From Leucoraja ocellata (lineage: Eukaryota): 64,000 nucleotides of DNA. The stretch lies in NCBI GenBank assembly GCA_036785375.1, contig JAWMAR010001797.1, positions 62,001 to 126,000 on the forward strand, read 5' to 3'. The notes beneath the pieces were generated by a model. It did not search any database and had not been told where the DNA came from. It worked only from the letters and a program-made list of their open reading frames with translations. Of this stretch, positions 709 through 60,128 are shown piece by piece. Each line of letters begins with the position of its first letter. Positions within the stretch are counted from its first letter, which is position 1. The position numbers and the translations under genes are program-made.

Positions 709-875
709 GGAGAGCGGTACAGCTTTAAGAATTGTAGCTGCAGTTGTTGAAAAGAACTGGTCGTGTCGCTGTCTACCAATGAGAAGCTCGAGTACGCAGA
801 TGGATCCATTGCCCCTCCCACATCTCCAGAATAAAAACGCCAGACGCGACGACAGAGACCAGCTGTGCCTGCGTT
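709..875 (+). promoter_or_regulatory. Protocadherin promoter module with CSE-like CGCT box (767-770), unit 1
   Basis: TGCAG...AAAGAACTGGTCGTGTCGCTGTCTACCAATG...CCCCTCCC...AATAAAAA, conserved upstream of every full unit about 250-260 bp before the ATG. Matches the CGCT-box CSE of clustered Pcdh promoters. Confidence 0.8.
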
Positions 876-1026
876 TCCATTGCCGAAACAAGCTGAGCAG
901 GATAGATTTGCCGTCTGTTTAGATTGGGGATTGGAAATATATAAGATTTTGTATCTGGTGCGTGGAACATTTGCACGGATTAACCGAGGAGAGGCCTAGT
1001 CTTGGACTTTGACGGGGCGCGGAACA

Positions 1027-3507
1027 ATGGCGTTTCTATCGAGGTTTGCTTTCACTGTGTTTGCTTGCATATTTGCGATATGTCGACCTGGTCTTATCTC
1101 CGGGCAAATTCGCTATTCTATTCCCGAGGAAATGGAGCAAGGTGCATTTGTTGGGAATATCGCTGTGGATTTGAGCCTGAGTGTACATCAATTATCAGCT
1201 CGCAAATTCCGACTGAGCTCCGATGACGGAGGGCGATACATGAAGGTTAGTTTGGACAATGGAATCATGAGTATTCGTGAAAGAATCGACCGGGAACGTA
1301 TTTGTGGACAGAATGATCAATGTACTATACGTTTCGAAACAATACTGGAAAACCCTTTGGAGGTGTATGAAGGGGAATTGGAGATTCTTGACGTAAATGA
1401 CAATTCCCCCACTTTCCCGCAGAGGGGCATTGCTTTGCAGATGTCAGAAGCGAGTGCACCCGGTGCACGTTTCCGACTCGAGGGCGCGGATGATCCGGAC
1501 ATTGGTACAAATACCGTGGCCGCTTACACAATCGGTTCGAGTGATCACTTTAGCCTAAGAACACAGAAAACCGAGAGCGGCATTATAATTGTCGAATTGC
1601 TCTTGGAGAAATATTTGGACCGAGAACTACAATCATCATTTCAACTCTTGCTTACGGCGACTGACGGCGGAACCCCTCAGAGATCAGCCACAGCTCAGAT
1701 TCTCATTACTGTATTCGATAACAATGATAATCCACCTGTGTTCGATCATGATATTTACAGAGGTAGTGTAAGTGAGAACGCGCCGCGGGGTACGTTGGTG
1801 CTGAAAGTCAAAGCAATTGATTTGGATGAAGGACTGAATGCGGACCTGACATATCGTTTTAGTGATGTTGCTTTGCGAAGAGCGCAAAATGTATTCAGTT
1901 TGGAACCAGGCACCGGGGAGATTCGAGTCCAACAGCCACTAGATTTTGAAGAAGTAAACAGCTATTCTCTCGATATTCAAGCCCAGGACCACGGTTCCCC
2001 TGCAATGACAGGACACTCCAATGTACTGATCGAAGTCACTGATGTGAACGACAACGCACCTGAGATAAAGGTAACTTCAGCTTCCAACAAAATCCAGGAA
2101 AATGCGCCACCAGGAAGTTTCATATCCCTGATTAATGTGATGGATCGTGATTCAGCAGCGAACGGTCAAGTGCGTTGCGAGATACAAAAGAACGTCCCAT
2201 TTCGACTGCAAAGGACATCGAACCACTATAAATTAACCACGAGTGAAACGTTGGATCGTGAAGCCATCTCTGAGTATGACATACTTATTTCAGCCTGGGA
2301 CTTGGGGTCGCCGTCACTTTCAACAAATAAAACCATCCAGATTGCAATTTCGGACGTTAATGATAACGCACCGCAGTTCGGTGATGCATCCTACAACGTA
2401 TATGTAATGGAGAATAACCCTCCGGGTGCATTCATTTTTACAGTGACTGCAACGGATCCCGATCTGGACCAAAATTCATATGTTTCCTACTCCGTTCTCG
2501 ATAATCATATCCAAAACATGCCGGTATCCACTTATCTCACTATTAACCCAATGAACGGTACTATTTACGCGCTGCGTTCCTTTGACCACGAGGAACTCAA
2601 GAACTTCCAGATCCGTATACAAGCCCGTGACGCAGGGGTGCCTCCGTTGAGCAGCAGCGCCACGGTGAATGTGATCATCTTGGATCAAAATGACAACGCG
2701 CCGGTAATTGTTTCACCTTCAGAACAAAGTGGCCCAGCAACAGTGGAGATCGTGCCCCAGATAGCGGGTCAAGGGTACTTGGTCACCAAGATAATGGCAA
2801 CTGATGCCGATTCTGGTCAGAACGCTCGGCTCTTTTATCATATGGTGAAATCTACCGACCCTGGTTTGTACAACGTTGGACAACATTCAGGTGAAATCAG
2901 AACGGCGCGCAATATTATGCAGTCAGATGCTGTTGTACAAACTCTAGTCATCTTGGTTAAGGACAATGGGCAGCCAAGCCTGACCAGCACAGTTACAATC
3001 CACATTAGAGTTTTGTGGAACAGCACTGAAGGAACCGGCGAAAGCAGTACCTTGGTGAAGACTCCAGAATATTTCTCTGATCCAAACGTTTATTTAATCA
3101 TCATTTTCAGTTGCACTTCCGTGATATTTCTTCTGATCATCGTTCTGTTGATTGGCATCAAGTGTAAACAGGACAGAATTAATATCCAAGATTATAACTC
3201 CCCTAATTATTCTTACAATCATGCGGGTTCTCACGGCACGCTTAATGGGAGATCTGCCATGGAGGAAACTTTACGCTATCCTGGGACGGGCCGGGTACTC
3301 CGCTTGCAAGAGCCGAATCAATACTCGGTCTGTCTTTCTCCAGCGTCAGCGAAAAGCGATTTTCTCTTCTTGAAGCCATGCGGCGCACCCACCTCTCAAG
3401 CCCAATGCCAAATAACACTGATGCGTAGATTAAGGAATGCCAATTTTGTGTGCGGCCATTTTATTTCTGGCCGGAAATATGAATCAGTGCGAGTTAAATA
3501 TTTTTAA
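1027..3507 (+). CDS. Clustered-type protocadherin, unit 1 (826 aa, single exon; C-terminally extended by stop loss)
   Basis: ATG at 1027 in ACAATGG context. Signal peptide, EC1 with C-X5-C (ICGQNDQC), six cadherin repeats with DRE/DxNDN/AxDxG motifs, TM (VYLIIIFSCTSVIFLLIIVLLIGI), tail motif CLSPASAKSDFLFLKP. Confidence 0.93.
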   Translation: MAFLSRFAFTVFACIFAICRPGLISGQIRYSIPEEMEQGAFVGNIAVDLSLSVHQLSARKFRLSSDDGGRYMKVSLDNGIMSIRERIDRERICGQNDQCTIRFETILENPLEVYEGELEILDVNDNSPTFPQRGIALQMSEASAPGARFRLEGADDPDIGTNTVAAYTIGSSDHFSLRTQKTESGIIIVELLLEKYLDRELQSSFQLLLTATDGGTPQRSATAQILITVFDNNDNPPVFDHDIYRGSVSENAPRGTLVLKVKAIDLDEGLNADLTYRFSDVALRRAQNVFSLEPGTGEIRVQQPLDFEEVNSYSLDIQAQDHGSPAMTGHSNVLIEVTDVNDNAPEIKVTSASNKIQENAPPGSFISLINVMDRDSAANGQVRCEIQKNVPFRLQRTSNHYKLTTSETLDREAISEYDILISAWDLGSPSLSTNKTIQIAISDVNDNAPQFGDASYNVYVMENNPPGAFIFTVTATDPDLDQNSYVSYSVLDNHIQNMPVSTYLTINPMNGTIYALRSFDHEELKNFQIRIQARDAGVPPLSSSATVNVIILDQNDNAPVIVSPSEQSGPATVEIVPQIAGQGYLVTKIMATDADSGQNARLFYHMVKSTDPGLYNVGQHSGEIRTARNIMQSDAVVQTLVILVKDNGQPSLTSTVTIHIRVLWNSTEGTGESSTLVKTPEYFSDPNVYLIIIFSCTSVIFLLIIVLLIGIKCKQDRINIQDYNSPNYSYNHAGSHGTLNGRSAMEETLRYPGTGRVLRLQEPNQYSVCLSPASAKSDFLFLKPCGAPTSQAQCQITLMRRLRNANFVCGHFISGRKYESVRVKYF

Positions 3508-11095: not shown

Positions 11096-11262
11096 GGAGA
11101 GCAGCACAGCTTTAAGAATTGCAGCTGCAGTTGTTGAAAAGAACTGGTCGTGTCGCTGTCTACCAATGAGAAGCTCAAGCACACAGATGGATCATTGCCC
11201 CTCCCACATCCCAGAATAAAAACGTCATACGCGACGAGAGATGCGAGCAGTGCCTGCGTTTC
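11096..11262 (+). promoter_or_regulatory. CSE-like promoter module, unit 2 (CGCT 11154-11157)
   Basis: Same conserved module. Confidence 0.8.
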
Positions 11263-11411: not shown

Positions 11412-13797
11412 ATGGCGTGCCTTCCGAGGTTTGCCTTCACTGCGTTTGCTTGCATATTTGTGATATGTCGATCGGGTCTAATCTCCGGGCAAATTCGTTA
11501 TTCTATTCCCGAGGAAATGAAGCAAGGGGCATTTGTTGGGAATATCGCTGTGGATTTGGGCCTGAACGTACGGCAATTGTCAGCTCGCAAATTCCGATTG
11601 GGCTCTGATGACGGAGGGCGGTACATGAAGGTCAGTTTGGACAATGGAATCATGTCTATTCGTGAAAGAATCGACCGGGAACGTATTTGTGGACAGACTG
11701 ATAAATGTACTATACCTTTCGAAAACCATACTGGCAAACCCTTTGGAGATGTATCACGGGGAATTGGAGATTCTTGATGTAAATGACAATTCCCCCACTT
11801 TCCCACAGAGCAGCATTGTCTTGCAGATATCGGAAGCCAGTGCACCCGGTGTACGTTTCCGACTCGAGGGCGCGGATGATCCCGACTTTGGTACAAATAC
11901 CGTGGCCGCTTACACAATCAGTTCCAGTGAGCACTTTAGTCTAAAAACACAGAGAGCCGAAGACGGTATTATAATAGCCGAGTTGCTGTTAGAGAAGTTG
12001 TTGGACCGAGAGCAGCAATCATCCCTTCAACTCTTGCTTACTGCGATTGACGGCGGAACCCCTCAGAGATCAGCCACAGCTCAGATTCTCATTAAAGTAT
12101 TGGACATCAACGATAATCCACCTGTGTTCGATCATGATAGTTATAGAGGCAGCGTAAGTGAGAACGCTCCGCGGGGTACGTTGGTGCTGAAAATCCAAGC
12201 AAATGATTTGGACGAAGGCCTGAATGCAGAGTTAACATATCGTTTCCATGATGCTACTTTGCGAAGAGTGCAAAATGTATTCAGTTTGGGTCCACGCACC
12301 GGGGAGATTCTAGTTAATGGGCCTCTAGATTTTGAAGAAGTAAACAGCTATTCTCTCGATATTCAAGCCCAGGATCACGGTTCACCTGCAATGACGGGGC
12401 ACTGCAAAGTTGTGATCAAAGTGATTGACGCGAATGACAATGCACCTGAGATAAGGGTAACATCAGCTTCCAACAAAATCCAGGAGGATACTCCACCAGG
12501 AAGTTTCATATCCCTGATTTATGTGATCGATCGCGATTCCGAAACGAACGGTCAAGTGCGTTGCGAGATACAAAAGAACGTCCCATTTCGACTGCAAAAG
12601 ACATCGAACCACTATAAATTAGTCACCAGTGAAACGTTGGACCGTGAAGCAATCTCTGAGTATAACATTCTTGTTTCAGCCTGGGACTTGGGTTCACCGT
12701 CACTATCAACAAATAAAACCATCGAGATTTCAATTTCGGACATTAATGATAACGCACCACAGTTCGGTGAGACATCCTACAACGTATATGTAATGGAGAA
12801 TAACGCGGCGGGTGCGTCCGTTTCCACAGTAACTGCAATGGATCCTGATCTGGATCTAAATTCCCATGTTTCCTACTCCTTTCTCGACAATCATATCCAA
12901 AACTTGCCAGTGTCCACTTACCTCACTATTAACACAATGAACGGTACTATTTACGCGCTGCGTTCCTTTGACTATGAGGAACTCAAGAACTTCCAGATCC
13001 ATGTTCAAGCCCGTGACGCCGGGGTGCCTCCGTTGAGCAGCAGCGCCACGATGAATGTGATCATCCTGGATCAAAATGACAACCCGCCGGTAATTGTTTC
13101 ACCTTCAGAACAAATTGGCTCAGCAACAGTGGAGGTCGTGCCCCAGACAGCGGGTCAAGGGTACTTGGTCACCAAGATAATCGCAACCGATGCCGATTCT
13201 GGTCAGAACGCACGGCTCTTTTATCAGATGATGAAATCTACCGCACCCGGGTTATATAACATTGGACAACATTCCGGAGAAGTCAGAACAGCGCGCAATA
13301 TTTTGCAGTCAGATAATGCTTTACAAACTCTAGCCATCTTGGTTAAGGACAATGGGCAGCCAAGCCTGTCCAGCACAGTTCTAATCAACATTAGATTGTT
13401 GTGGAACAGCACTGAAGGAATCAGCGAAAGCAGTACCTTGGTGAAGAATCCAGAATATTTCTCTGATCCAAACGTTTATTTAATCGTCATATTCAGTTGC
13501 ACTTCCGTGATCTTTCTTTTGATCATCATTCTATTGATTGGTATCAAGTGTAAACAGGACAGACATAGTATCCAAGAGTATAACTCGCCTAGTTATTCTT
13601 ACAATGATGGGGGTTCTCATGGTACGTTTAGTGGAAGACCTGCCCTGGAGGAAACTTTACGCTATCCTGGGACGGGCCGGGTACTCCGCGTGCAAGAACC
13701 GAATCAATACTCGGTTTGTCTTTCTCCAGAGTCAGCGAAAACCGATTTTCTCTTCTTGAAGCCATGCGGCGCACCCACCTCCCAAGCCGAATGCTAA
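11412..13797 (+). pseudogene. Clustered-type protocadherin, unit 2, with one +1 frameshift in EC1 (pseudogene or sequencing error)
   Basis: ORFs 11241-11777 and 11644-13797 join into a 794-aa protocadherin if one A is removed from the run at 11722-11725 (GAAAACC vs paralog GAAACA). No other lesions seen. Confidence 0.85.
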
Positions 13798-13948: not shown

Positions 13949-13954
13949 AATAAA
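13949..13954 (+). terminator. Putative polyadenylation signal AATAAA, unit 2
   Basis: AATAAA at the homologous position about 150-195 nt after the stop in six units. Confidence 0.5.
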
Positions 13955-16856: not shown

Positions 16857-19673
16857 ACATAGATTACATTACATTCCGTTAGTGTAACACGGTGTTTTTA
16901 ATTAAATATCGTACATTGTAATCTTTAAAGATAATGTTAACTATTCATTTATGTGTTTCAAAATTGATCATGTCCCCTAATATCGGACCGTGAGGATCAA
17001 ATTGTGTGTTTTTTTTGTTCTGGGTAAGGTACTGCTAACACGCCCAGCAATCAGGAAGGGATCGGTTCTCAGCATCTTGGCTCTCCTGGATGGAACAAGG
17101 ACAGCATTTCCTTATTGAATCCTCCATTCACTAACTTTCGCATTTAATTCAATTTACCTCAATTTAAACATAATTCCGTCACTGAGTACATACCCCCTTC
17201 CCTGTCTGTTCAGCAGTTCAAATGTAACACTTTTTCATCGAGCTATATGGTAGTCAACTGATCAGAAAACGTGTAACGTTCGTTTATTTTACCAGTTCCC
17301 TTCCACCATACAAGACCCGAAATTCTTCTCGGTGAAATAGTGATCTGCTTGCCTTTCTGCCAATATAATGTATTTGGTCTTCCCAATGCGGTAACACTGT
17401 ATTTGAGACACTGCAAGAAGATTGTGCCATTGCATTGTAGAGCACGTGCGGACAGTCTGCAGGAAATAAACTGATTTTTTCCCCATTTGTTTAACACTTT
17501 CGTTCTCAATTTCACACTATCTATTATTTTTCCTCTGAATTCCAACACTGTTGGAACAAGTGCAAAGCAAAGGTGCACGCTTGAGAAACAGCATTCATCT
17601 TCCACATGGACAAGTTGCAACCTTCCTGAGCTCGCCACTCTTGGCTGTTATCATTTCGGTTTAGTTTTGCATCATGTTTGCCGAGGTGTAGATCATACAA
17701 ACAAACCATTCGTTACATCGCATCTACGATGACCATCATGTTTATCTGTACTAATTCCACCCGAGCATTTACTCCGTGTCCATCAATTCCCAACATAGTC
17801 ACATTCCCATTATGTACCTTTTACATATTTAACTGTTCCCGTCTCCGTCACATAAACTGACATCTCAATCCACCTGCCGTATTCCGTATTTCTGAAATTA
17901 ATAGCCAACCGGCCGACTTTAAAAGTACTCCCTCTGATCCTAAAACTTATGTTCTAGTTTTGGAGCTCCCTAACATTGGAAATGGCTGTGGGAATCTACC
18001 CTGTCTCTCTCGCTCGTGATTGTGTCATGGCACCGCTCAGCTATGTTCACTCCAGGGAATGCAGTTCTAGCCTACACAATCTCCCCTCATGACGTAAACC
18101 TGCCCATCCTGGCAACGTACTTTGGAGTGTGGCCTGCTACCTATCTGGCTTAACCCAACAACTTATATATTGTGCATGCCAGATGTGCACACAATAATTC
18201 AAATCCAGCCTAACCAATGTTTTATTCAAATATATTACACCTCGACTCTTACATTCAGTACCGCTGCTGAGGGAGACAACCGTGCCATATGCCTTCGGTG
18301 AGACCCTGTCCACACTTTTCAGTTTTATAGAACAAATTTATTTCAGACGGAATCCCCGTCTGTTCAATAACCTGAACATGTCCCATTCCCTTGCTATTAG
18401 CTATACACCACAGAAACAACGAAGCATAATTTGTCCTATCAGCCTCTTTCCTATTTTTTTCTCCTTTACTTCCCATCATTAAACTTACTGAAAAATGAAC
18501 TATTTTTTAAATAATTCATCGTTCAGATAAAGCAGCCAAGCCCCGAAATGTTGATTTTATTTCTTTTCACAGGTGATACCTGAATCGATGAGTGTTTCAG
18601 CATTTTCAGTTGTTATTGCACATGACACTGTTGCGCTTTTGACTGCTTATCAGTTAATTGCTAAATTGCGAAAACAGCATGCTTCCTGGTTGGTGGAAGG
18701 AATTATCCATCATCTCACCTGTAGTTTTTCGTGTTGTTTGCGTTTTTATTTTGCAGATTTTATTACAATTATTCGGTTGATTGAATTTCATTGCAATTTG
18801 ATTTTTTTGCGGGGAGCGCGTGGTTCAGTAATTGTAAAACTTTTGTGTGGTTATGGAATATAAAAATTGAAACCCAGCGCTAACTTGAGAATGATATGGA
18901 ATTGATATCCAATAACCCAAGTGTGGCATCATAAATCTCCACAACATTTTCAACCAATGGAGAACATTACCATTTAGTTTGATTAGAGATTCTATCCTCT
19001 ACGTCATGAAGAACATGTCCCATTCAAATTTTGCCGGGATCGTGCATGACGTTGAACATCCACTGCAAACTCGAGGAGCAGAAATTAAACTTCAATTGTC
19101 TAACCACATTACAAGTACTTTAGGCCACCTTGTTAACGTTCACTAAAAATACTTGTTTACACGCTAAGTGTGGTACCACGAGATTAATGTTAACTAGGGA
19201 GTATTTTCAATGAACAAAATATCTGCGGATTAATGGGTAATCCAGTAATTTCATTGCAAATTGCGGTAATAAAACAAATTAAGAAAAAAGAAAAAGCGAA
19301 ACTGAGAATCCTAAGTTAAATAAGAATTCAAAAATTCACAAATTTTCCGCGCCAAACTTCACACCGACACCTATTTTCTATGTTCCCAAAACATCTGTCG
19401 GAATCTGCTGGGTGATGTGCTCGCAAAGCTGCTGCAAGCAAGATTTACATTGCAGCGTTGACTCTGCTCCATATACATGTACGTGTCAATAAACTTGGCT
19501 TGACGTGGACGTGAGGATGCCTCTCTCCAAACCTCACTTCCATTAAACAGGAAGTCGGTTGAACAATTGGCCAATTGAAAGTATTATATTCACGAACACC
19601 TTCTCCAAACTTTGGAAAGCGATAATGAAATACTCTTATCAAATAAGGGAAAATTATGTAGTCGTGATATGAA

Positions 19674-20288
19674 GGGCAATTGATGCAGATTCTGGTCAGA
19701 ACGCACGTCTCCTTTATCAGATTATGAAATCTACCGACCCCGGTTTGTACAACTATGGACAACATTCTGGAGAAATCAGAACAGCGCGCAATATTTTGCA
19801 AACAGGTACTGCTTTACAAACTCTAGTCATCTTGCTTAAGGACAATGGAGAGCCAAGCCTGTCCAGCACATTTACAATGAACATTAGTTTTGGAAAACAG
19901 CACTGAAGGAATCAGCGAAAGAAGTACCTTGGTGATGAATTAAGAATATTTCTCTGATCCAAACGGTTATTTAATTGTCATTTTCCGTTGCACTTTCGTG
20001 GTCTGTCTTCTGATCATCATCCTATTGATTGGCTTCAAGTGTAAACAGGCCAGAAATATTATCCAAGAGTATTACGCCCCCAGTTACTGTTACAATCGTG
20101 GGGTTTCGCACGGCACGTTTAATGGAAGATCTGCGATGGAGGAAATGTTAGGCTTTTCTTGGACAGAGCGGGCAGTCCGCGGGCCAGATCTGAATCAATA
20201 CTCGGTAAGTCTGTCTCCAGTCAGCGAAAAACGAGTTTTCTCTTTACTGAAGCCATGTGGTGCTGCCACCTCTCAAGGTCAATGTTAA
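19674..20288 (+). pseudogene. 5'-deleted protocadherin relic, unit 3 (part of EC6, TM and tail only)
   Basis: Begins at the ATDADSGQN-coding sequence fused directly to upstream spacer DNA. 2-bp deletion near 19887, CCA>TAA at 19941. Ends ...KPCGAATSQGQC*. Confidence 0.9.
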
Positions 20289-21960: not shown

Positions 21961-22128
21961 GGAGAGCAGTACAGCTTTAAGAATTGTAGCTGCAGTTGTG
22001 CAAAAGAACTGGTCGTGTCGCTGTCTACCAATGAAAAGCTCAAATACATAGATGGATCCATTGTCCCGCCCACATCCCAGAATAAAGACGTCAGACGCGA
22101 CGAGAAAGGCGAGGAGTGCCTGCGTTTC
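21961..22128 (+). promoter_or_regulatory. CSE-like promoter module, unit 4 (CGCT 22019-22022)
   Basis: Same conserved module. Confidence 0.8.
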
Positions 22129-22267: not shown

Positions 22268-24652
22268 ATGGCGTACCTACCGAGGTTTGCCGTCACTGCG
22301 TTTGCTTGCATATTTGCGATTTGTGCACCGGGACTAATCTCCGGGCAAATTCGTTATTCTATTCCCGAGGAAATGGAGCAAGGGGCATTTGTTGGGAATA
22401 TCGCTGTGGATTTGGGCCTGAGCGTACGGCAACTGTCAGCTCGCAAATTCCGGCTGAGCTCCGATGACGGAGGGCGGTACATGAAGGTTAGTTTGGAGAA
22501 TGGAATCATGTCTATTCGTGAAAGAATCGACCGGGAACGTATTTGTGGACAGAATGATCAATGTACTATACGTTTCGAAATTATACTGGAAAACCCTTTG
22601 GAGGTGTATGACGGCGATATGGAGATTCTTGATGTAAATGACAATTCCCCCACTTTTCCGCTAAGCAGCATTGCCTTGCAGATATTGGAAGCCAGTGTAT
22701 CCGGTGTACGTTTCCGACTCCAGGGCGCGGATGATCCCGACATTGGTACAAATACCGTGGCCGCCTATACAATCAGTTCCAATGAGCATTTTAGTCTAAA
22801 AACACAGAAATCCGAAGACGGTATTGTAATTGCCGAATTGCTGTTAGAGAAATCTTTGGACCGAGAGATGCAATCATCATTTCAACTCATGCTTACTGCG
22901 TTTGACGGTGGGACCCCTCAGAGATCAGCTACGACACAAGTTCTGATTACGGTATTCGACCAGAACGATAATCCACCTGTGTTCGACCATGATATTTACA
23001 GAAGCAGCGTAAGCGAGAACGCGGCGCGGGGTACGCTGGTGCTGAAAGTCCAAGCAAATGATTTGGACGAAGGACTGAATGCGGAGCTGACATATCGTTT
23101 CAATGATGTTGCTTTGCGAGGAGTGCAACATGTATTCAGTTTGGATCCACGCACTGGGGAGATTCTAGTTAAAGGGCCTCTAGACTTTGAAGAAGTAAAC
23201 AGCTATTCTCTCGATATTCAAGCCCAGGACCACGGTTCCCCTGCAATGACAGGACACTCCAAAATATTGATCAAAGTAATTGACGTGAACGATAATGCAC
23301 CTGAGATAAAGGTGACATCAGCTTCCAACAAAATCCAGGAAAATACTCCACCAGGAAGTTTTATATGTCTGATTAATGTGATGGATCGTGATTCTGGACC
23401 GAACGGCCAAGTACGTTGCGAGATACAAAAGAACGTCCCATTTCGACTGCAAAAGACATCAAACCACTATAAATTAGTCACCAGTGAAACGTTGGACCGT
23501 GAAGCGATCTCTGAGTATAACATTGTAATTTCAGCCTGGGACTTGGGGTCGCCTTCTCTAACATCAAATACAACCATCCATATTGCTATTTCGGACGTAA
23601 ATGACAATGCACCGCAATTCGCGGAGTCATCCTACAACGTATATGTAATGGAGAATAACGCTCCGGGTGTATCCATTTTCACAGTAACTGCAACAGATCA
23701 CGATCTGGATCAAAATTCCTATCTTTCCTACTACTTTCTCGATAATCATATCCAAAACATGCCAGTGTCCACTTACCTCTCCATTAATTCAATGAACGGT
23801 ACCATTTACGCGCTGCGATCCTTTGACTATGAGGAACTCAAGAACTTCCAGATCCATGTACAGGCCCGTGACGCCGGGGTGCCTCCGTTGAGCAGCAGCG
23901 TCACGGTGAATGTGATCATCCTGGATCAAAATGACAACGTGCCGGTAATTTTTTCACCTTCAGAACAGAGTGAATGGGCGGCAGTGGATACCGTACCCCG
24001 GTCAGCAGGTCAAGGGTACTTGGTCAGCAAGATAATGGCAACTGATGCAGATTCTGGTCAGAATGCACGGCTCTTTTATCAGATAGTGAGATCTACAGAG
24101 CCCGGGTTGTATAACATTGGACAACATTCCGGAGAAGTCCGAACAGCGCGCAATATTTTCCAGTCAGATACTGCTTTACAAACTCTAGTCATCTTGGTTA
24201 AGGACAATGGGCAGCCAAGCCTGTCCAGCACAGTTACAGTAAACATTAGAGTTTTAGGAAACAACACTGAAGGAATCAGCGAAAGCAGTACCTTGGTGAA
24301 GAATCCAGAATATTTCTCTGATCCAAACGTTTATTTAATCGTCATTTTCAGTTGCACTTCCGTGATATTTCTTCTGATCATCATTCTGTTGATTGGCATC
24401 AAGTGTAAACAGAACAGAAATATTATCCAAGAGTATAACTCCCCTAGTTATTGTTACAATCATGGGGTTTCGCACGGCACGTTTAATGGAAGACCAGCTA
24501 TGGAGGACACATTATGTTATCCTGGGACGGGCCGGGAAGTCCGGGGGGCAGAACTGAATCAATACTCAGTCTGTCTGTCTCCAGAGTCAGCGAAAAGCGA
24601 TTTTCTCTTCCTGAAGCCCCGCGACGCTCCCACCTCTCAAGCCCAAAGCTAA
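22268..24652 (+). CDS. Clustered-type protocadherin, unit 4 (794 aa, single exon)
   Basis: Intact ORF with signal peptide, six EC repeats, TM and CLSPESAKSDFLFLKP tail. Confidence 0.95.
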   Translation: MAYLPRFAVTAFACIFAICAPGLISGQIRYSIPEEMEQGAFVGNIAVDLGLSVRQLSARKFRLSSDDGGRYMKVSLENGIMSIRERIDRERICGQNDQCTIRFEIILENPLEVYDGDMEILDVNDNSPTFPLSSIALQILEASVSGVRFRLQGADDPDIGTNTVAAYTISSNEHFSLKTQKSEDGIVIAELLLEKSLDREMQSSFQLMLTAFDGGTPQRSATTQVLITVFDQNDNPPVFDHDIYRSSVSENAARGTLVLKVQANDLDEGLNAELTYRFNDVALRGVQHVFSLDPRTGEILVKGPLDFEEVNSYSLDIQAQDHGSPAMTGHSKILIKVIDVNDNAPEIKVTSASNKIQENTPPGSFICLINVMDRDSGPNGQVRCEIQKNVPFRLQKTSNHYKLVTSETLDREAISEYNIVISAWDLGSPSLTSNTTIHIAISDVNDNAPQFAESSYNVYVMENNAPGVSIFTVTATDHDLDQNSYLSYYFLDNHIQNMPVSTYLSINSMNGTIYALRSFDYEELKNFQIHVQARDAGVPPLSSSVTVNVIILDQNDNVPVIFSPSEQSEWAAVDTVPRSAGQGYLVSKIMATDADSGQNARLFYQIVRSTEPGLYNIGQHSGEVRTARNIFQSDTALQTLVILVKDNGQPSLSSTVTVNIRVLGNNTEGISESSTLVKNPEYFSDPNVYLIVIFSCTSVIFLLIIILLIGIKCKQNRNIIQEYNSPSYCYNHGVSHGTFNGRPAMEDTLCYPGTGREVRGAELNQYSVCLSPESAKSDFLFLKPRDAPTSQAQS

Positions 24653-24811: not shown

Positions 24812-24817
24812 AATAAA
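24812..24817 (+). terminator. Putative polyadenylation signal AATAAA, unit 4
   Basis: Positionally conserved among paralogs. Confidence 0.5.
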
Positions 24818-28297: not shown

Positions 28298-28465
28298 GGA
28301 GAGCAGTACAGCTTTAAGAATTGCAGCTGCAGTTGCTGAAAAGAACTGGTCGTGTCGCTGTCTACCAATGAAAAGCTCAAGTACAGCGATGGATCCATTG
28401 TCCCTCCCATATCCGAGAATAAAAACGTCAGACACGTTTAGAGAGGCGAGCAGTGCCTGCGTTTT
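28298..28465 (+). promoter_or_regulatory. CSE-like promoter module, unit 5 (CGCT 28356-28359)
   Basis: Same conserved module. Confidence 0.8.
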
Positions 28466-31173: not shown

Positions 31174-31179
31174 AATAAA
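31174..31179 (+). terminator. Putative polyadenylation signal AATAAA, unit 5
   Basis: Positionally conserved among paralogs. Confidence 0.5.
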
Positions 31180-35743: not shown

Positions 35744-35910
35744 GAAGAGCAGTACAGCTTTAAGAATTGCAGCTGCAGTTGTTGAAAAGGACTGGCCGTG
35801 TCGCTGTCTACCAATGAGAAGCTCAAGTATAGAGATGGATCCATTGTCCCTCCCACATCCCAGAATAAAAACGTCAGACGCGACGAGAGAAGCGAACAGT
35901 GTCTGCGTTT
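35744..35910 (+). promoter_or_regulatory. CSE-like promoter module, unit 6 (CGCT 35802-35805)
   Basis: Same conserved module. Confidence 0.8.
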
Positions 35911-38601: not shown

Positions 38602-38607
38602 AATAAA
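38602..38607 (+). terminator. Putative polyadenylation signal AATAAA, unit 6
   Basis: Positionally conserved among paralogs. Confidence 0.5.
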
Positions 38608-39738: not shown

Positions 39739-40554
39739 GGGTGTTTGTCATCTTCCACTCACTAGCTTTCACGTTCAATGCAATTCGAACATTTCGCTAC
39801 TGAGCATATATATACTTCCCTGCCTGATTAGTAGTTCAAATGTATCACTCCTTCATCGATCCCTATTCTGGTCTTCTGACCATACCGACCACTGACCGTT
39901 CTTTACAGTTTTCCATGAAACCACAAAACGTTTCACGTTCGTTATTTTACAGATTCCCTTCCACCATACAGGACGTGAAATTATCCCCGGTGAAGCAGTG
40001 ATTTGCTTTCTCTTCTCCCTATACAATTTAAGTATTGGTCTACCCAATGTGGCGAGTGTGTTGAAACACTGAGAGGATTGCGCCATTCTTTGCAGAGCAC
40101 GTCTGCAGTAAAGAAATATATTTTCCAGTTCCTTTTCAGTTTAATTCACAATTTCAGCATGAGCTGATGTTTTTGTCTCTGACTTGCAGGACTCCAGATC
40201 AAGCACGCTTGAAAAACAGCGTCTCATCTTCCATCTGTTAAAATGTCGGCTTAGTTCTTCATTCTATTTTGCATAGAGGTGTAGAACATAGAAACAGATC
40301 TGTCGGTACAACGCATCGACGCTGGCCACCATGTTTATCACAACGAATTCCATCCTTCCATAAATTCCATTTCAACCAATTCCCTGCACGTCACATTCCC
40401 ATTAAGTACATTTTTCATACTCATCCGTTCCCGTCTTCACCATCTACACTGACATCGCAGTCGAGATGCTATGTTCTCTTTATTTTCTGAAATGATTAGT
40501 CCCCCACACCCGGTCAGCTTTAAAACTCATCTCTCTGATCTTATATTTTTCTAG

Positions 40555-42894: not shown

Positions 42895-43060
42895 GGGGAG
42901 CGGTACAGCTTTAAGAATTGTAGCTGCAGTTGCTGAAAAGAACTGGTCGTGTCGCTGTCTACCAATGAGAAGCTCAAGTACGCAGATGGATCCATTGCCC
43001 CTCCCACATCCCAGAATAAAAACGTCAGTCGCGGCCAGCGAGGCTAGCAGTGCCTGGTTT
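42895..43060 (+). promoter_or_regulatory. CSE-like promoter module, unit 7 (CGCT 42953-42956)
   Basis: Same conserved module. Confidence 0.8.
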
Positions 43061-43216: not shown

Positions 43217-45595
43217 ATGGCGTTCCTACCGAGGTTTGCATTCAATGTGTTTCTGTGCATGTTTACGATATGTGCACCCGGTCTAATTTCCGGGCAACTT
43301 ATTTATTCTGTTCCCGAGGAAATGAAGCAAGGAGCATTTGTTGGGAATATCGCTCAAGATCTGGGCCTGAACGTACCTCAATTGTCAGCTCGCAAATTCC
43401 GACTGGGCGCTGATGACGGAGGGCGGTACATGAAGGTCAGTTTGGACAATGGAATATTGTCTATTCGTGAAAGAATCGACAGAGAACGTATTTGCGGAGA
43501 AGCGGATGTGTGCATTATTCCTTTCGAAATAATATTGGAAAAGCCCTTGGAGGTGTACCGCGGAAAAATAGAGATTCGTGATGTAAATGACAATGCGCCC
43601 ACTTTCCCGCAGAGCAGCATTGCCCTTCAGATATCGGAAGCGAATGCACCCGGTGTACGTTTCCGTCTCGAGAGCGCGGATGATCCCGACATTGGAACAA
43701 ATACCGTGACCGCCTATACAGTCAGTTCCAGTGAGTACTTCAGTCTGAGGACACAGAAAACCGAGGACGATATTATAATTGCCGAATTGCTGTTGGAGAA
43801 ATCTTTGGACCGAGAGATACAATCATCATTTCAGCTCTTTCTGACTGCGACTGATGGTGGGACCCCTCGGAGAACAGGCACAGCTCAAATTCTCATTACT
43901 GTCTTGGACATCAATGACAATCCACCTGTGTTCGAACGTGATATTTACAGGGGCAGCATAAGTGAGAACGCACCGCATGGTACCTTGGTGATGAAACTCA
44001 AAGGAAATGATTTGGACGAAGGAGAGAATGCAAAGATAATATATTCATTTAGTGATGTTGCCTTGCGAAAAGTCGGTAATTTGTTCAGTTTAGACCCAGA
44101 GACCGGGGAGATTCGAGTTGGCGGGCAGCTGGATTTTGAAGAAGCAAACAGTTATTCTCTCAATGTTGAAGTAGTGGACCACGGCTCACCTGTAATGACA
44201 GGGCACTCCAAAGTGCTTATCAAAGTAATTGACGTGAACGACAATGCACCCGAAATAAAGGTGACATCAGCTTCCAACATAATCCCAGAAAATGCTCCTC
44301 CAGGAACTTTAGTAACGTTGATCAGTGTTTTGGATCGTGATTCTGGAGAGAACGGCCATGTTCGCTGCACGGTACCAAGGAACATACCCTTTAAACTACA
44401 AACAGCATCGGATCATTATAAATTAATTACCAGCGAAATGTTTGATCGTGAAGCGATATCTGAGTACAGAATACTTATTTCCGCCTGGGACTTGGGATCG
44501 CCTTCACTGTCCGCAAATATAACCATGAGTATTACAATTTCAGACATTAATGATAACGCCCCTCGGTTTGCTGAATCATCGTACAACATATACGTTATGG
44601 AGAATAACGCTCCGGGTGCGTCCATTTTCACAATAACAGCAACGGATCTCGATCTGGACCAGAATTCGCGTGTTTCTTATACTTTTCATGAGAATCAAGT
44701 CATAAACGCGCCAGCGTCCACCTACCTAACCATTAACTCAATGAACGGTACCATTTATGCGCTGCGGTCGTTTGACTATGAGAATCTCAAAAACTTCCAG
44801 ATCCACGTTCAAGCCCGTGACGCGGGGATGCCTCCGCTGAGCAGCAGCGCCAGGGTGAATGTGATCATCTTGGATCAAAATGACAACGCGCCGGTAATTG
44901 TTTCGCCGTCAGAACATAGTGGATCAGCAGCAGTGGAGACTGTGCCAAGGTCAGCGGGGCAAGGGTACTTGGTCACCAAGATAATGGCAACTGATGCAGA
45001 TTCTGGTCAGAACGCTCGGCTCGTTTATCAAATGGTGAAGTCTACCCATCCCAGTTTGTACAAAGTTGGGCAAATATCCGGTGAAATTAGAACAGCGCGC
45101 AACATCATGCAGTCAGACACTGCTGTAAGTCAGACAAGTCTGGTCATCTTGGTGAAGGACAATGGGCAGCCAAGCCTGTCCAGCACGGTCACAGTGAACA
45201 TTAAAGTTTTGGAGAACAGCACTGAAGGAATCGTGGAAAGAAGCAACTTATTGATGGAACCAGAATATTTATCTGATCCAAACGTTTATTTAATCGTGAT
45301 TTTCAGTTGTACTTCCGTTGTCTTTCTTCTGATCATTGTTCTGTTGATTGGCATCAAGTGTAAACAAGACAGAAATAACATTCAAGCGTATAACTCCCGC
45401 GGTTATTGCTACAATCCTGGCAATTCTCACGGCACGTTCAATGGAAGACTTGCCATAGAGGAAACTTTACGCAATCCTGGGACAGGACGTGTAGTCCGCG
45501 TGTCAGATCTTAATCAATACTCGGCCTGTCTTTCTCCAGAATCAGCGAAAAGCGATTTTCTCTTCTTGAAACCATGCGGCGCTTCCACCTCCTAA
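43217..45595 (+). CDS. Clustered-type protocadherin, unit 7 (792 aa, single exon)
   Basis: ATG at 43217. Intact architecture; stop is four codons earlier than in paralogs (..GASTS*). Confidence 0.95.
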   Translation: MAFLPRFAFNVFLCMFTICAPGLISGQLIYSVPEEMKQGAFVGNIAQDLGLNVPQLSARKFRLGADDGGRYMKVSLDNGILSIRERIDRERICGEADVCIIPFEIILEKPLEVYRGKIEIRDVNDNAPTFPQSSIALQISEANAPGVRFRLESADDPDIGTNTVTAYTVSSSEYFSLRTQKTEDDIIIAELLLEKSLDREIQSSFQLFLTATDGGTPRRTGTAQILITVLDINDNPPVFERDIYRGSISENAPHGTLVMKLKGNDLDEGENAKIIYSFSDVALRKVGNLFSLDPETGEIRVGGQLDFEEANSYSLNVEVVDHGSPVMTGHSKVLIKVIDVNDNAPEIKVTSASNIIPENAPPGTLVTLISVLDRDSGENGHVRCTVPRNIPFKLQTASDHYKLITSEMFDREAISEYRILISAWDLGSPSLSANITMSITISDINDNAPRFAESSYNIYVMENNAPGASIFTITATDLDLDQNSRVSYTFHENQVINAPASTYLTINSMNGTIYALRSFDYENLKNFQIHVQARDAGMPPLSSSARVNVIILDQNDNAPVIVSPSEHSGSAAVETVPRSAGQGYLVTKIMATDADSGQNARLVYQMVKSTHPSLYKVGQISGEIRTARNIMQSDTAVSQTSLVILVKDNGQPSLSSTVTVNIKVLENSTEGIVERSNLLMEPEYLSDPNVYLIVIFSCTSVVFLLIIVLLIGIKCKQDRNNIQAYNSRGYCYNPGNSHGTFNGRLAIEETLRNPGTGRVVRVSDLNQYSACLSPESAKSDFLFLKPCGASTS

Positions 45596-45766: not shown

Positions 45767-45772
45767 AATAAA
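45767..45772 (+). terminator. Putative polyadenylation signal AATAAA, unit 7
   Basis: Positionally conserved among paralogs. Confidence 0.5.
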
Positions 45773-47517: not shown

Positions 47518-48128
47518 ACTCGTAGTGCAGTGGAGTGCGGTCGCTATTCGCTTACAGGCACTGGAGGGCAGTCGTAGGCCATCTCCTTCGCTGACCGGCC
47601 AATTTGATTGGCTCATTGGAGTTTCACGACCTAGGAAGACCTAGTGCCCGGTAAACTTTACTATATATCTCCACTCCTTCTCCCCACCTTCTCTCCTCTC
47701 CCCCTTCTCCCCCCCCTTCTCTCCCCCTTCTCTCCGCTTCTCTCTCCGTCTCTCTCCGTCTCTCCCCTTCTCCCCCCCCCCCCCCCCCCCCCCCGCGCTA
47801 TCTAAATGACTTACGCGCTCTGTGGTAGCCGTTTACCTTCCTCTTCACCACGCAGACAGTGCTCATCCGCTTTCCCTNNNNNNNNNNNNNNNNNNNNNNN
47901 NNNNNNNNNNNNNNNNNNNNNNNNNNNNNNNNNNNNNNNNNNNNNNNNNNNNNNNNNNNNNNNNNNNNNNNNNNNNNNNNNNNNNNNNNNNNNNNNNNNN
48001 NNNNNNNNNNCGGTTTCAACGCGGCCGGTCGATCCTGCTCGAGGCTTTCCAGAAGAGTGCCCTCGAGCATGAAAGTCGAAGGCACTATTCTGGAATCGCG
48101 GATTATGTCACCCAAGTGGGACAGGCCC
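47518..48128. mobile_element. Putative Harbinger-like non-autonomous element spanning the assembly gap
   Basis: Right end GTCACCCAAGTGGGACAGGCCC followed by TTTAA resembles a Harbinger TIR with a TWA target. The left TIR was not seen. Confidence 0.45.
47878..48010. other. Assembly gap (133 N)
   Basis: Run of N. Confidence 1.
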
Positions 48129-49618: not shown

Positions 49619-49785
49619 GGAGAGCGTTACAGCTTTAAGAATTGAAGTTGCAGTTATTGAAAAGAACTGGCTGTGTCGCTGTCTACCAATGGAAAGCTCA
49701 ACCACACAGATGGATCTATTGCCCCTCCCACACCCCAGAATAAAAACGTCAGACGCGACGAGAGAGGCCAGCAGTGCCTGCGTTT
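49619..49785 (+). promoter_or_regulatory. CSE-like promoter module, unit 8 (CGCT 49677-49680)
   Basis: Same conserved module. Confidence 0.8.
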
Positions 49786-49937: not shown

Positions 49938-52322
49938 ATGGCGTGCCTACCGAGGTTTGCCTTCACAGTGTGTGTTTGCATGTTTGCGATATATGCACCG
50001 GGTCTAATCTCCGGGCAAATTCGTTATTCTATTCCCGAGGAAACCGAGCAAGGGGCATTTGTTGGCAATATCGCTCGAAATCTGGGCCTGAACATACGGC
50101 AATTGTCAGCTCGCAAATTTCGACTGAGCTCTGATAATGGCGGACGGTACATCAAGGTTAGTGCTGACAATGGAGTGTTGTCTATCCGTGAAAAAATCGA
50201 TAGGGAACGTATTTGTGGAGAAGCGGATGTGTGTATTATACCCTTCGACATTGTTCTGGAAAATCCCTTGGAGGTGTATCGCGGAAAAATTGAGATTCTT
50301 GATGTAAATGACAATCCACCTACTTTCCCGCACGGCAGCATTGCCTTACAGATATCGGAAGCGAGTGCACCCGGTGTACGTTTCCGTCTCGAGAGCGCAG
50401 AAGATCCTGACATTGGAATAAATACCGTGGCCGCCTACACAATCAGCTCTAGTGAGCACTTCAGTCTAAAAACACAGAAAACCGAGGACGGGTTTGTAAT
50501 TGCCGAGTTGTTGTTGGAGAAATCATTGGATCGAGAGCTACAATCATCATTTCAACTCTTGCTAACTGCGACTGACGGTGGAACCCCTCAGAGATCAGGC
50601 ACAACTCAGATTCGCATTAATGTATTGGACATCAATGATAATCCACCAGTGTTCGACCAGGATATTTACAGGGGGAGTATAAGCGAGAACTCCGCCAATG
50701 GTATCTCGGTATTGAAAGTCAAAGCACACGATATGGACGAAGGACTGAATGGGAAGATATCATATTCTTTTAGTGATGTCGCCGTGCGAAAGGTTCGTAA
50801 TTTGTTCAGTTTAGACCCAGATACTGGAGAGGTTCGAGTTGGTGGAAACTTGGATTTTGAAGAAACAAAGGTCTATTATCTAGATGTTCAAGCTATAGAT
50901 CACGGCTTAGCTGCAATGACAGGACACTCCAAAGTGTTGATCAAAATAATGGACGTAAACGACAATGCACCCGAGATACAGGTGACATCAGCTTCCAATA
51001 AAATCCCGGAAAATTCTCCGCCAGGAACTTTGGTAACGTTGATCAATGTTATGGATCGTGATTCTGGAGAGAACGGCCAAGTCCGCTGTTCGTTACCAAA
51101 GAACATACCATTTAAACTACAAACAGCATCGGATCGTTACAAATTAATTACCAGTGAAATGTTGGACCGTGAAGCGATATCTCAGTATAATGTAGCTATT
51201 TCGGCATGGGACTTGGGGTCGCCTTCACTCTCCGCAAATCTAACCATCCAGATTACCATTTCAGACGTAAACGACAACGCCCCTTGGTTTGCTGAATCAT
51301 CCTACAATGTATATGTGATGGAGAATAACGCCCCAGGTACATCACTGTTCACAGTATCTGCAATGGATGCTGATATAGAACAAAATTGCTATGTATCTTA
51401 CTCCATTGTGGATACACACATAGACAACCTGCCAGTTTCCACTTACCTCAGCATCAACGCAATTAACGGGACCATGTATGGGTTACACTCCTTTGATTAT
51501 GAGAAACTCAAAAACTTCCAAATACAAGTTCAAGCCCGTGACGCAGGGGTGCCTCCATTGAGCAGCAGTGCTATGCTGAATGTGATCATCCTGGATCAAA
51601 ATGACAATGCTCCGATATTTGTTTCACCGCCAGGACAGAGTGAATCGGCAGCAATGGAGATCGTGCCCCGGTCAGCGGGTCAAGGGTACCTGGTCACCAA
51701 GATAATGGCAACTGATGCAGATTCTGGTCAGAATGGTCGGTTCATTTATCAGATAGTGAAATCTACTGATCCCAGTTTGTACAATGTTGGGCAAAATTCC
51801 GGTGAAATTAGAACAGCGCGCAACATCCTACAGTCAGATATTTCTGTACACACACTGGTCATCTTGGCGAAGGACAACGGGCAGCCAAGCCTCTCCAGTA
51901 CGGTTACAATTAACATTAAAATATTGGAGAACAGCACTGAAGGAATCGCGGATACAAGCAGCTTATTGATGGATCCTGAATATTTCTCTGATCCAAACGT
52001 TTATTTAATCGTCATTTTCAGTTGCACTTCCGTTGTCTTTCTTCTGATCATTATTCTGTTGATTGGCATCAAGTGTAAACAAGACAGAAATAACATTCAA
52101 GAGTATAACTCCCGCAGTTATTGTTACAATCGTGGGGATTCTCACGATACGTTTAAAGGAAGGCCTGCCATGGAGGAAACTTTACGCTATCCTGGGACAG
52201 GTCAGGTAGTCCGCGTTGCAGATATGAATCATTACTCAGTCTGTCTGTCTCCAGAGTCAGCGAAAAGTGATTTTCTCTTCTTGAAGCCATGCGGCGCTTC
52301 CACCTCTCAAGCTCAAAGCTAA
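49938..52322 (+). CDS. Clustered-type protocadherin, unit 8 (794 aa, single exon)
   Basis: Intact ORF with signal peptide, six EC repeats, TM and tail. Confidence 0.95.
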   Translation: MACLPRFAFTVCVCMFAIYAPGLISGQIRYSIPEETEQGAFVGNIARNLGLNIRQLSARKFRLSSDNGGRYIKVSADNGVLSIREKIDRERICGEADVCIIPFDIVLENPLEVYRGKIEILDVNDNPPTFPHGSIALQISEASAPGVRFRLESAEDPDIGINTVAAYTISSSEHFSLKTQKTEDGFVIAELLLEKSLDRELQSSFQLLLTATDGGTPQRSGTTQIRINVLDINDNPPVFDQDIYRGSISENSANGISVLKVKAHDMDEGLNGKISYSFSDVAVRKVRNLFSLDPDTGEVRVGGNLDFEETKVYYLDVQAIDHGLAAMTGHSKVLIKIMDVNDNAPEIQVTSASNKIPENSPPGTLVTLINVMDRDSGENGQVRCSLPKNIPFKLQTASDRYKLITSEMLDREAISQYNVAISAWDLGSPSLSANLTIQITISDVNDNAPWFAESSYNVYVMENNAPGTSLFTVSAMDADIEQNCYVSYSIVDTHIDNLPVSTYLSINAINGTMYGLHSFDYEKLKNFQIQVQARDAGVPPLSSSAMLNVIILDQNDNAPIFVSPPGQSESAAMEIVPRSAGQGYLVTKIMATDADSGQNGRFIYQIVKSTDPSLYNVGQNSGEIRTARNILQSDISVHTLVILAKDNGQPSLSSTVTINIKILENSTEGIADTSSLLMDPEYFSDPNVYLIVIFSCTSVVFLLIIILLIGIKCKQDRNNIQEYNSRSYCYNRGDSHDTFKGRPAMEETLRYPGTGQVVRVADMNHYSVCLSPESAKSDFLFLKPCGASTSQAQS

Positions 52323-52484: not shown

Positions 52485-52490
52485 AATAAA
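52485..52490 (+). terminator. Putative polyadenylation signal AATAAA, unit 8
   Basis: Positionally conserved among paralogs. Confidence 0.5.
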
Positions 52491-57435: not shown

Positions 57436-57602
57436 GGAGAGCAGTGCAGCTTTAAGAATTGTAGCTGCAATTGTCGAAAAGAACTGGTCGTGTCGCTGTC
57501 CACCAATGAGAAGCTCAAGTGCACAGATGGATCCATTGCCCCTCCCACATCCCAGAATAAAAACGTCAGACGCGACGAGAGAGGCGAGCAGTGCCTGCGT
57601 TT
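57436..57602 (+). promoter_or_regulatory. CSE-like promoter module, unit 9 (CGCT 57494-57497)
   Basis: Same conserved module, intact. Confidence 0.8.
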
Positions 57603-57751
57603 GGATTGCGGAATCCATGTTAGGAGGAAAATATCCCGACTGTTCCGAGTCAGTATTTCGATTATATATATATATTTAAATCTTGTGCTTGGAACATTTT
57701 ACGGATACGTGAGGAGAGGCCTGGTTTTGGACATTGACTGAGCGCGGAACA

Positions 57752-60128
57752 ATGGCGTACCGACCGAGGTTTGCCTTCACTGTGTTTGTGTGCATGTTTA
57801 TGCAATGTGCACCTGGTCTAATTTCCGGGCAAATATATTATTCTATTCCCGAGGAAATGGAGCAGGGGGCATTTGTTGGGAATATCGCCGAGGATTTGGG
57901 GCTGAATGTATGGCAAATGTCTCCTCGGAAATTACGACTGATTCTGATAATGGCGGACGGTACCTGAAGGTTAATTTGGAGAATGGAATATTGTCTCTTC
58001 GTGAAAGAATCGACAGGGAACGTATTTGCGGACAGGACGATAAGTGTACTATATCTTTCGAAACAATACTGGAAAATCCTTCCGAGGTGCATCGCGGAAA
58101 AATCGTGATTTTTGATGTAAATGACAATGCGCCCACTTTCCCGCACAACAGCATTGTCCTCCAGATATCGGAAGCGAGCGCACCCGGTGTACGTTTCCGT
58201 CTCGAGAGCGCAGATGATGCTGACATTGGAATAAATACCGTGGCCGCCTACACAATCAGTTCCAGTGCGTACTTTAGTCTAAAAACACAGAAACCGATGA
58301 CGGGTTTATAATTGCCGAATTACTGTTGGAGAAATTTTTGGACCGAGAGATGCAATCATCATTTCAACTCGTGTTTACTGCGACTGACGGCGGGACCCCT
58401 CAGAGATCAGGCACAACTCAGATTATCATTTCTGTGTTGGACTTCAATGATAATCAGCCTGTATTCGATCGTGATATTTACAGGGGAAGCGTAAGCGAGA
58501 ACTCCACCAAAGGTACCTCAGTGATGAAAGTCAAAGCAAATGATATGGATGAAGGACAGAATGCTAAGATAACATATTTGTTTAGTGATGTTGCCGTGCG
58601 AAAAGCTCGTAATTTGTTCCGTTTAGACCCAGATACCGGGGAGATTCGCATTGAAGGGCCCTTGGATTATGAACAAGCAAACGGCTATGCTCTAGATGTT
58701 AAAGCTGTGGACCACGGCTCGCCTGCAATGACTGGACACTCCAAAGTGCTGATCAAAGTAATTGATGTGAACGATAATGCACCCGAGATGAAGGTGACAT
58801 CAGCATCCAACAAAATCCCGGAAAATGCTCCGCCGGGAACTTTCGTAACGTTGATCAGTGTTATGGATCGAGATTCTGGAGAGAACGGTCAAGTCCGCTG
58901 CCAGATCCCAAATAACATTCCATTTAAACTACAATCAGCGACGGATCATTACAAATTAATTACCAGTGAAATGTTTGATCGTGAAGTGATATCTGGGTAT
59001 AAAATACTTATCTCAGCTTGGGACAAGGGGTCGCCATCACTATCCGCAAATATAACCATTGAGATTACAATTTCAGACGTTAATGATAACACTCCACGGT
59101 TTGCTGAATCTTCCTACAACATTTATGTCATGGAAAATAATGCCCCGGGTGTGTCCATTTTCACAGTAACTGCAACGGATCCTGATCTGGAGCAGAATTC
59201 CTATGTTTCCTACGCTTTTCTGGAGAATCAAGTCATAACTTGCCAGTGTCCACTTACCTGAACATTAACTCAATGAACGGAACAATTTATGCGCTGCGCT
59301 CGTTTGACTATGAGAATCTCAAAAACTTCCAGATACACGTTCAAGCCCGTGACGCTGGGGTACCTCCGCTGAGTAGCAGCGCCACGGTGAATGTGATCGT
59401 CCTGGATCAAAATGACAACGCTCCGGTAATTGTTTCACCTTCGGAACAAGGTGGATCAGCAACAGAGGAGATTGTGCCCCGGTCAGCCGGTCAAGGGCAC
59501 TTGGTCGCCAAGATAATGGCAACTGATGCAGATTCTGGTCAGAATGCGCGGCTCTTTTATCAGATGGTGAAATCTACCGATCCCAGTTTGTTCAAAGTTG
59601 GGCAAATTCTGGTGAAATCAGAACTGCGCGCAATATTTTGCAGACAGATGCGACTACACAAACTCTGGTCATCTTGGTCAAGGACAATGGGCAGCCAAGC
59701 CTCTCCAGCGCCGTTACAATGAATATTAGAGTTTTGGAGAACAGCACTGAAGCAATGTCCGAAAGCAGTAGCTTGGTGAAAAATCCAGGGGGGTTTCTGA
59801 TCCAAATGTTTACTTAATCATCATTTTCAGTTGCACTTCCGCTGTCTTTCTTCTGATCATCGTTCTGTTGATTGGCATCAAGTGTAAACAAGACAGACGT
59901 ATTATCCAAGGGTATAACTCCCCCAGTTATTGTTACAATCGTGGAGATTCACAAGGCACGTTTAATGGAAGAGCCGTCATGGAGGAAACTTTACGCTATC
60001 CTGGGACAGGTCAGGTATCCCGCGTGCCGGAATCGAATCAGTACTCTGTATGTCTATCTCCAGAGTCAGCTAAAAGCGATTTTCTCTTCTTGAAGCCATG
60101 CGGAGCTCCTCTCTCTCAGGCTCAATGA
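57752..60128 (+). pseudogene. Clustered-type protocadherin, unit 9, with five -1 frameshifts (pseudogene or assembly errors)
   Basis: Consecutive ORF pieces tile a full protocadherin. Single-base losses near 57942, 58292, 59237, 59605 and 59790. The span is 2377 nt; adding 5 nt gives 793 codons plus stop. Confidence 0.85.

Follow-up and report, generated by a model that had tools for sequence, protein, structure and literature searches.

A contig of the skate Leucoraja ocellata (JAWMAR010001797.1) carries a tandem array of protocadherin genes, and a first-pass annotation had read the array as an undescribed subcluster without constant exons, whose delta-2-like tail might link clustered protocadherins to PCDH10. 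Is the array a new kind of protocadherin cluster or part of a system already known, and does each of its genes make a complete mRNA by itself? These questions were addressed in the whole stretch of 64,000 nt that was analysed (positions 62,001 to 126,000 of the contig), here called the window, in which all positions below are counted.

The window contains eight tandem protocadherin units on the + strand (U1 to U8) and one promoterless fragment, all of epsilon type. Each unit encodes a signal peptide, six EC repeats, a TM and a short tail, either in one reading frame or in its frameshifted equivalent. Reading frames are intact in six of the eight (U1 and U3–U7; 790–826 aa). In U1 and U7, Pfam matches are PF08266, five stretches of PF00028, and PF16492, and PF15974 is absent. 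The array of self-contained units described earlier stands in that all eight units were found, but U2 and U8 are frameshifted, and the 3′ fragment had not been listed. The indels of U2 and U8 need not mark pseudogenes, as errors in the assembly may have caused them.

Table 1 Units, CSE-type elements and poly(A) signals of the array, in window positions
Feature	Positions	Strand	Remark
CSE-type element of U1	763..781	+	CGCT box, then CCAAT
U1, Pcdh-epsilon gene	1027..3507	+	826 aa; CAA at usual stop, +32 residues
CSE-type element of U2	11150..11168	+	
U2, Pcdh-epsilon gene	11412..13797	+	1-nt insertion near 11722; pseudogene or assembly error
AATAAA after U2	13949..13954	+	
3′ fragment, EC6-TM-tail with 3′ flank	19649..20288	+	promoterless, frameshifted
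CSE-type element of U3	22015..22033	+	
U3, Pcdh-epsilon gene	22268..24652	+	intact, 794 aa
AATAAA after U3	24812..24817	+	
CSE-type element of U4	28352..28370	+	
U4, Pcdh-epsilon gene	28609..30981	+	intact, 790 aa
AATAAA after U4	31174..31179	+	second begins at 31179
CSE-type element of U5	35798..35816	+	stranded-run RNA depth begins in its bin
U5, Pcdh-epsilon gene	36053..38440	+	intact, 795 aa
AATAAA after U5	38602..38607	+	RNA depth ends in its bin
CSE-type element of U6	42949..42967	+	
U6, Pcdh-epsilon gene	43217..45595	+	intact, 792 aa; stop 4 codons early
AATAAA after U6	45767..45772	+	
CSE-type element of U7	49673..49691	+	
U7, Pcdh-epsilon gene	49938..52322	+	intact, 794 aa
AATAAA after U7	52485..52490	+	
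CSE-type element of U8	57490..57508	+	
U8, Pcdh-epsilon gene	57752..60128	+	five 1-nt deletions; pseudogene or assembly errors

The stretch 21878-27745 matches 28211-34135 at 88% over ~6 kb, gene and spacer together, which points to recent duplication of a whole unit. When the six intact units are compared, EC3 varies more than any other EC domain (mean identity 74%), as expected for binding specificity. No strong gene-conversion gradient was seen across EC1–EC6, where fourfold-site identity is 0.56–0.77. At the VCD motif, fourfold-degenerate sites are 100% identical among the six intact units versus 56–77% in the EC domains, which could be local conversion or, the sites being few, chance.

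Other features of the window were recorded as well. Many spacer blocks recur between units. The region 15700-17000 is G+C-rich (58% in 16001-17000), and an 85% inverted repeat is present there (15761-15874 versus 16106-16216). None of the six non-cadherin ORFs, including those of this G+C-rich region, matched a Pfam family, and the window gave no Rfam match. The assembly has a gap of 133 N at 47878-48010 beside a CT-rich repeat, and runs of G or C occur at 14307, 31041 and 60263.

Each unit was said to have a forward CGCT-box promoter of its own, and this was confirmed. The pattern GTGTCGCTGTCYACCAATG gave eight matches, all on the + strand and without mismatch, when 0.01 were expected by chance, and the CGCT-box element is located 253–268 nt upstream of the ATG in all eight units. 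The element is likened to the mammalian CSE by its CGCT box and its position, as described in the available portion of PMC7811963. The CGCT-box CSE of mammals binds CTCF according to the accessible part of PMC3333863. An NRSE pattern (PMC2926608) gave seven matches, all with three mismatches; it was discounted, five of the matches being one CDS-codon run in different units.

At the 3′ ends, an in-frame stop follows DFLFLKP in all eight units, six of which end 9–10 residues further, and the constant domain is absent from the frames. An own stop after the FLKP motif thus holds for every unit as claimed, except that U1 overruns the usual stop position, because CAA replaces the usual TAA there. 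In addition, U1 (3409-3507) lacks AATAAA at the common position, and its skate counterparts stop normally. Past the stop at 38438-38446 and at equivalent positions, Ile-Thr is found in frame and, by eye in one comparison, in register with Lys-Ile-Thr of the tail of elephant shark epsilon5.

Splice donors were scanned in the eight units from the TM to 700 nt downstream, using a rough weight table rather than a published model. GT sites were only weak (3.1–3.6 on a scale reaching 8.9), the top scores were those of three scattered GC sites, and no GT site stood at one offset in more than two of the eight units. To the extent of this rough scan, the earlier statement that the variable region ends without a conserved GT donor is borne out.

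AATAAA occurs 152–193 nt 3′ of the stop in six of the eight units, as had been noticed, but its position, taken to be the same in all six, slides inside an A-rich tract. It is also conserved no better than its surroundings, as 44 of 695 hexamers of the 3′ flank are common to at least six of the eight aligned copies. The signal is therefore weak evidence when taken alone. Its conservation as a sign of selection was rejected, the 44 flank hexamers being equally kept.

Relatives of the units are widespread in cartilaginous fish. U5 shares 98% identity with a protein from Leucoraja, and U1 shares 95% with one from Amblyraja. The best 120 matches to U7 include ~795-aa proteins of skates, sawfish, stingrays, electric ray and many sharks, for which automatic annotation gives the names ‘gamma-C5-like’ or ‘protocadherin-10-like’; PF15974 is listed for none of these 120, which, like the other homologues, are mostly related automatic gene models and not independent cDNAs. 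The extra base of U2 sits in an A run, and its Leucoraja counterparts are intact; pieces of U8 are 85–94% identical to an intact Amblyraja protein, despite the five deletions.

The stop position is kept across sharks and rays, relatives ending at the same place. When proteins with the epsilon-type last motif were collected (n = 129), 119 ended at most 21 residues after it and three ended at 34, and the other seven were fused or extended gene models (one of the seven not inspected). Mu-type and nu-type proteins run on into a constant domain, but none of the epsilon-type proteins inspected does so. A search by motif found no beta-type tail among the stored proteins. In two epsilon-type elephant shark models, P0122 and P0124, the ends resemble, on visual inspection, a single downstream sequence read in two frames, which may be due to faulty gene prediction or to a genuine exon located downstream.

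The identity of the array was examined by a tree of EC1–EC4 only (IQ-TREE, tail columns excluded). Its 78 rows, 71 of 213 extracted segments and seven others, were chosen so that every type of tail was represented. The frameshifted U2 and U8 were not included, beta and PCDH10 rows are absent, and the tree is read without a root. The named elephant shark proteins are one epsilon (epsilon5) and one mu (mu4). All six intact units group with epsilon5 and three unnamed elephant shark rows in one clade of 33 rows (support 100/100). Inside it, they belong to a 23-row clade of sharks and rays (100/99) and then to a 17-row clade of batoids only (100/100). Mu (five rows) and nu-type tails (ten rows) form separate clades, each at 100/100, the nu label being assigned by tail type. 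Clustered delta lies outside the epsilon clade. A branch with 99/91 support separates epsilon, mu, nu, clustered delta, gamma-C and one long unlabelled row from alpha, gamma-A and gamma-B.

The proteins themselves agree in organisation. Epsilon5 (ABV59323.1, 820 aa) carries CLSPESAKSDFLFLK, ends 34 residues later and lacks PF15974. On the other hand, mu4 (ABV59343.1, 964 aa) differs in its VCD and possesses a constant region containing PF15974, a domain also carried by clustered delta. The units are neither mu nor nu, being in separate clades from both and matching their tails poorly at the motif (7 of 22 residues between U7 and mu4, 5 of 22 with nu-type).

The first-pass annotation was right about a lineage-expanded subcluster free of constant exons with one CSE-type promoter per gene. 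It erred in taking the subcluster as undescribed, since the array groups with elephant shark epsilon5 at 100/100 on EC1–EC4 and neither has a constant domain. As far as it could be tested on EC1–EC4, the check by phylogeny that it had suggested returned orthology to a described subcluster of like organisation. Our verdict from these comparisons is that the array is orthologous to the known Pcdh-epsilon subcluster and represents it in the skate, enlarged by an expansion specific to rays. It is real and was correctly seen, but is an ordinary member of a known system.

The Pcdh-epsilon subcluster of elephant shark was reportedly named by Yu et al. in 2008, and epsilon is said to have been described there as without constant exons. 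According to the available text of Jiang 2009 (PMC2764143), the subclusters of elephant shark are delta, epsilon, mu and nu, of which epsilon, mu and nu lack bony-vertebrate orthologues. The constant-exon sets given in section 5 of that text are those of alpha, gamma, delta, mu and nu, and epsilon is not among them. The same subcluster picture is given in the accessible portions of PMC4978886 and PMC7811963. Beyond that indirect list in PMC2764143, the accessible portions of the open-access literature yielded no statement on epsilon anatomy, and nothing further came from PMC8289055, PMC7339444 and the angelshark preprint.

What, then, is the PCDH10-like tail? The tail motif is the end of PF16492, which also matches alpha, gamma, mu, nu-type and delta proteins. 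When 22 residues of the motif in U7 were compared, identity was 16 with epsilon5, 15–16 with three clustered delta-type proteins (one named ‘protocadherin delta 1’), 9–12 with gamma-C, 10 with teleost gamma and 7 with gamma-A and gamma-B. The best bony-vertebrate match to the tail is a clustered delta gene. A similar VCD motif was quoted for PCDH10 in the first-pass annotation. No PCDH10 tail was found among 24 representative matches, and a targeted search for PCDH10 tails returned one match from 69 candidates, which was clustered delta. In this comparison of clustered protocadherins, the delta-2-like tail does not stand out as a specific link to PCDH10: the motif is general to PF16492, and clustered delta equals epsilon5 at 16 of 22 residues. 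By our own alignment, the tail motif corresponds to the VCD motif treated in the accessible portion of PMC4660814, where alpha, beta and gamma are all described as having kept it, and where cytoplasmic association and endolysosomal trafficking are described as depending on it.

RNA evidence was obtained from four of 24 listed runs, all from one related organism, mapped to the U5 region (35600-39740) at 88% likeness. The reads are of low depth, come from another organism and derive mostly from paralogues, whose 3′ flanks are 74–80% like U5 and fall below the threshold. In X18, depth is one-stranded over the CDS, begins in the CSE bin, is 1.15 in the AATAAA bin (38519-38657) and 0 beyond. In X14, the CDS is covered, with 20 reads at 38410 and then a depth of 0.04 in the AATAAA bin. 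X12, a single-cell run, has little CDS depth, but its two bins of 38380-38657 have depths of 5.7 and 2.1, made by few molecules, and its highest depth in the unit is in the bin with the stop. X4 provides one contig colinear over 38338-38468, across the stop.

All six listed joints lie in repeats further downstream and none in the CDS or at the 3′ end, and all 24 loose ends listed of 216 likewise lie at repeats downstream. RNA over a unit is thus observed in a relative, and the U5 data are compatible with unspliced transcripts from the promoter to AATAAA. Elsewhere in the mapped region, 38909-38986 and 39594-39659 attract partial matches from reads by the hundred in each of the four runs and are thus likely high-copy repeats; 38909-38986 also shows tandem-like ‘goes back’ joints.

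Splicing could nevertheless occur in two ways. Transcripts without a constant domain could be spliced past the stop to a common or distal noncoding exon, so that the genes would not be strictly single-exon. CTG/GTACGT is found 10 nt past the stop in U3 and U4, the depth of X14 collapses just past the stop, AATAAA is not specially conserved, and the loose ends seen are a fraction of the total. However, the GT of U3 and U4 reads GAT in U1, U2, U5, U6 and U7, X18 and X12 do have depth in the AATAAA bin, and the X4 contig extends beyond the equivalent site. The drop in X14 could come from the lower identity of the 3′ flank (74–80% versus 80–94% in the CDS), although a splice explains it equally. 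We consider such downstream splicing improbable. It is very unlikely that the units are variable exons spliced from an in-tail donor to mu, nu or delta constant exons, with the stops ending unspliced forms only. Alpha and gamma clusters do splice in that way, as given in the available part of PMC7811963, and weak in-tail GT sites exist, such as CAG/GTCAGG in U7 and U8; but no in-tail donor is common to more than two of the eight units, and neither the stop position kept from sharks to rays nor the epsilon-type proteins inspected, none of which runs into a constant domain, would be expected from it.

The third alternative concerns lineage rather than splicing, the array being a tandem expansion of a non-clustered, PCDH10-like gene or else a new subcluster connecting the clustered protocadherins with delta-2. 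Many homologues bear the NCBI name ‘protocadherin-10-like’, but the same automatic naming extends to a clustered delta protein and the representative of the mu4 cluster. When EC1–EC4 were compared with solved structures, the six-domain PCDH10 chain was the top match with 479 bits over two stretches. Among chains of like length, PCDH10 scored 400 bits, above the other delta-2 members PCDH17, 18 and 19 (304–330 bits), yet within the range of alpha and gamma chains (alpha-4, 397; gamma-A8, 403; gamma-B7, 407) and below gamma-C4 (435). Besides, the units nest with epsilon5, albeit in a tree without a PCDH10 row, and their tail motif is matched by clustered delta. A separate lineage is hence a most implausible origin. 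On these scores, PCDH10 is the delta-2 gene nearest the clustered protocadherins, and nothing here makes epsilon a special bridge; the motif is equally present in the delta gene of the cluster. With regard to surface delivery of epsilon on its own, EC6 was compared and shows identities of 35% (alpha), 42% (teleost alpha) and 43–45% (gamma-A, gamma-B and teleost gamma). According to PMC12337331, such delivery is not predicted by interface residues.

We therefore regard it as highly probable that the window is part of the skate Pcdh-epsilon subcluster, in which tandem CGCT-box genes with their own stops are likely transcribed into unspliced single-exon mRNAs and are likely chosen promoter by promoter, like mammalian Pcdh-beta. 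If the units work as in mammals (PMC7811963), CTCF would bind the CSE and loop it to distal enhancers, each neuron would express a subset of the units, generating identity tags without common tail exons, and EC1–EC4 would bind homophilically in trans. Again by mammalian analogy, the terminal VCD motif would handle cytoplasmic association and endolysosomal trafficking, and constant-domain signalling could be supplied in cis by delta, mu or nu partners. The array itself grew by tandem duplication of whole units with their spacers within rays and skates.

This assignment fixes an identity: the epsilon subcluster is among the many shark and ray proteins entered in databases as ‘gamma-C5-like’ or ‘protocadherin-10-like’, and the resemblance of its tail to PCDH10 would reflect an old motif that the clustered delta gene has as well. 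Because skate single-cell RNA runs exist, it is now addressable whether epsilon expression is stochastic, beta-like or not. In mammals, the C-type/delta branch is mostly single-copy and constitutively expressed. We conceive, with somewhat less than even confidence, that epsilon is a convergent Pcdh-beta: cartilaginous fish would have built a second constant-exon-free, stochastic neuronal barcode independently, from the C-type/delta branch, and rays would have renewed it by an expansion of their own. If so, stochastic choice would follow promoter and enhancer geometry, not gene lineage. The significance is modest, with the subcluster named in 2008 and elasmobranch Pcdh tandem clusters already reported in the accessible text of the Squalomix preprint, where red stingray is expanded relative to whitebelly skate.

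Among known systems, elephant shark Pcdh-epsilon is shared in its EC1–EC4 clade (100/100), its CLSPESAKSDFLFLK tail and the lack of a constant domain, and a CGCT element was already identified in the elephant shark cluster, according to the available portion of PMC2926608. It differs in that epsilon5 has 34 residues past the motif versus 12 in skate, making the skate tail ~22 residues shorter, and in that the 23-row and 17-row subclades of the units contain none of the four sampled elephant shark rows. The short skate tail may have arisen by a nonsense change, judging by eye from a single comparison. Mammalian Pcdh-beta is alike in having single-exon genes, no constant domain and one CSE per promoter (accessible part of PMC7811963), but it is unlike in EC1–EC4, for which beta chains reach 350–361 bits and rank below gamma-C4, gamma-B7, gamma-A8, PCDH10 and alpha-4, a ranking by similarity with no beta row in the tree. 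Clustered Pcdh-delta has a near-identical VCD motif, CLTPESAKSDFMFLKP, with 15–16 of 22 residues, whereas it occurs as one gene only, located 5′ in the clusters of non-mammals, has the PF15974 constant domain and lies outside the epsilon clade. PCDH10, a non-clustered delta-2 gene, has the closest delta-2 ectodomain, yet it occurs singly and its tail is long, spliced and furnished with conserved motifs, whereas the skate units are tandem and CSE-driven and end 8–12 residues past the motif (44 in U1).
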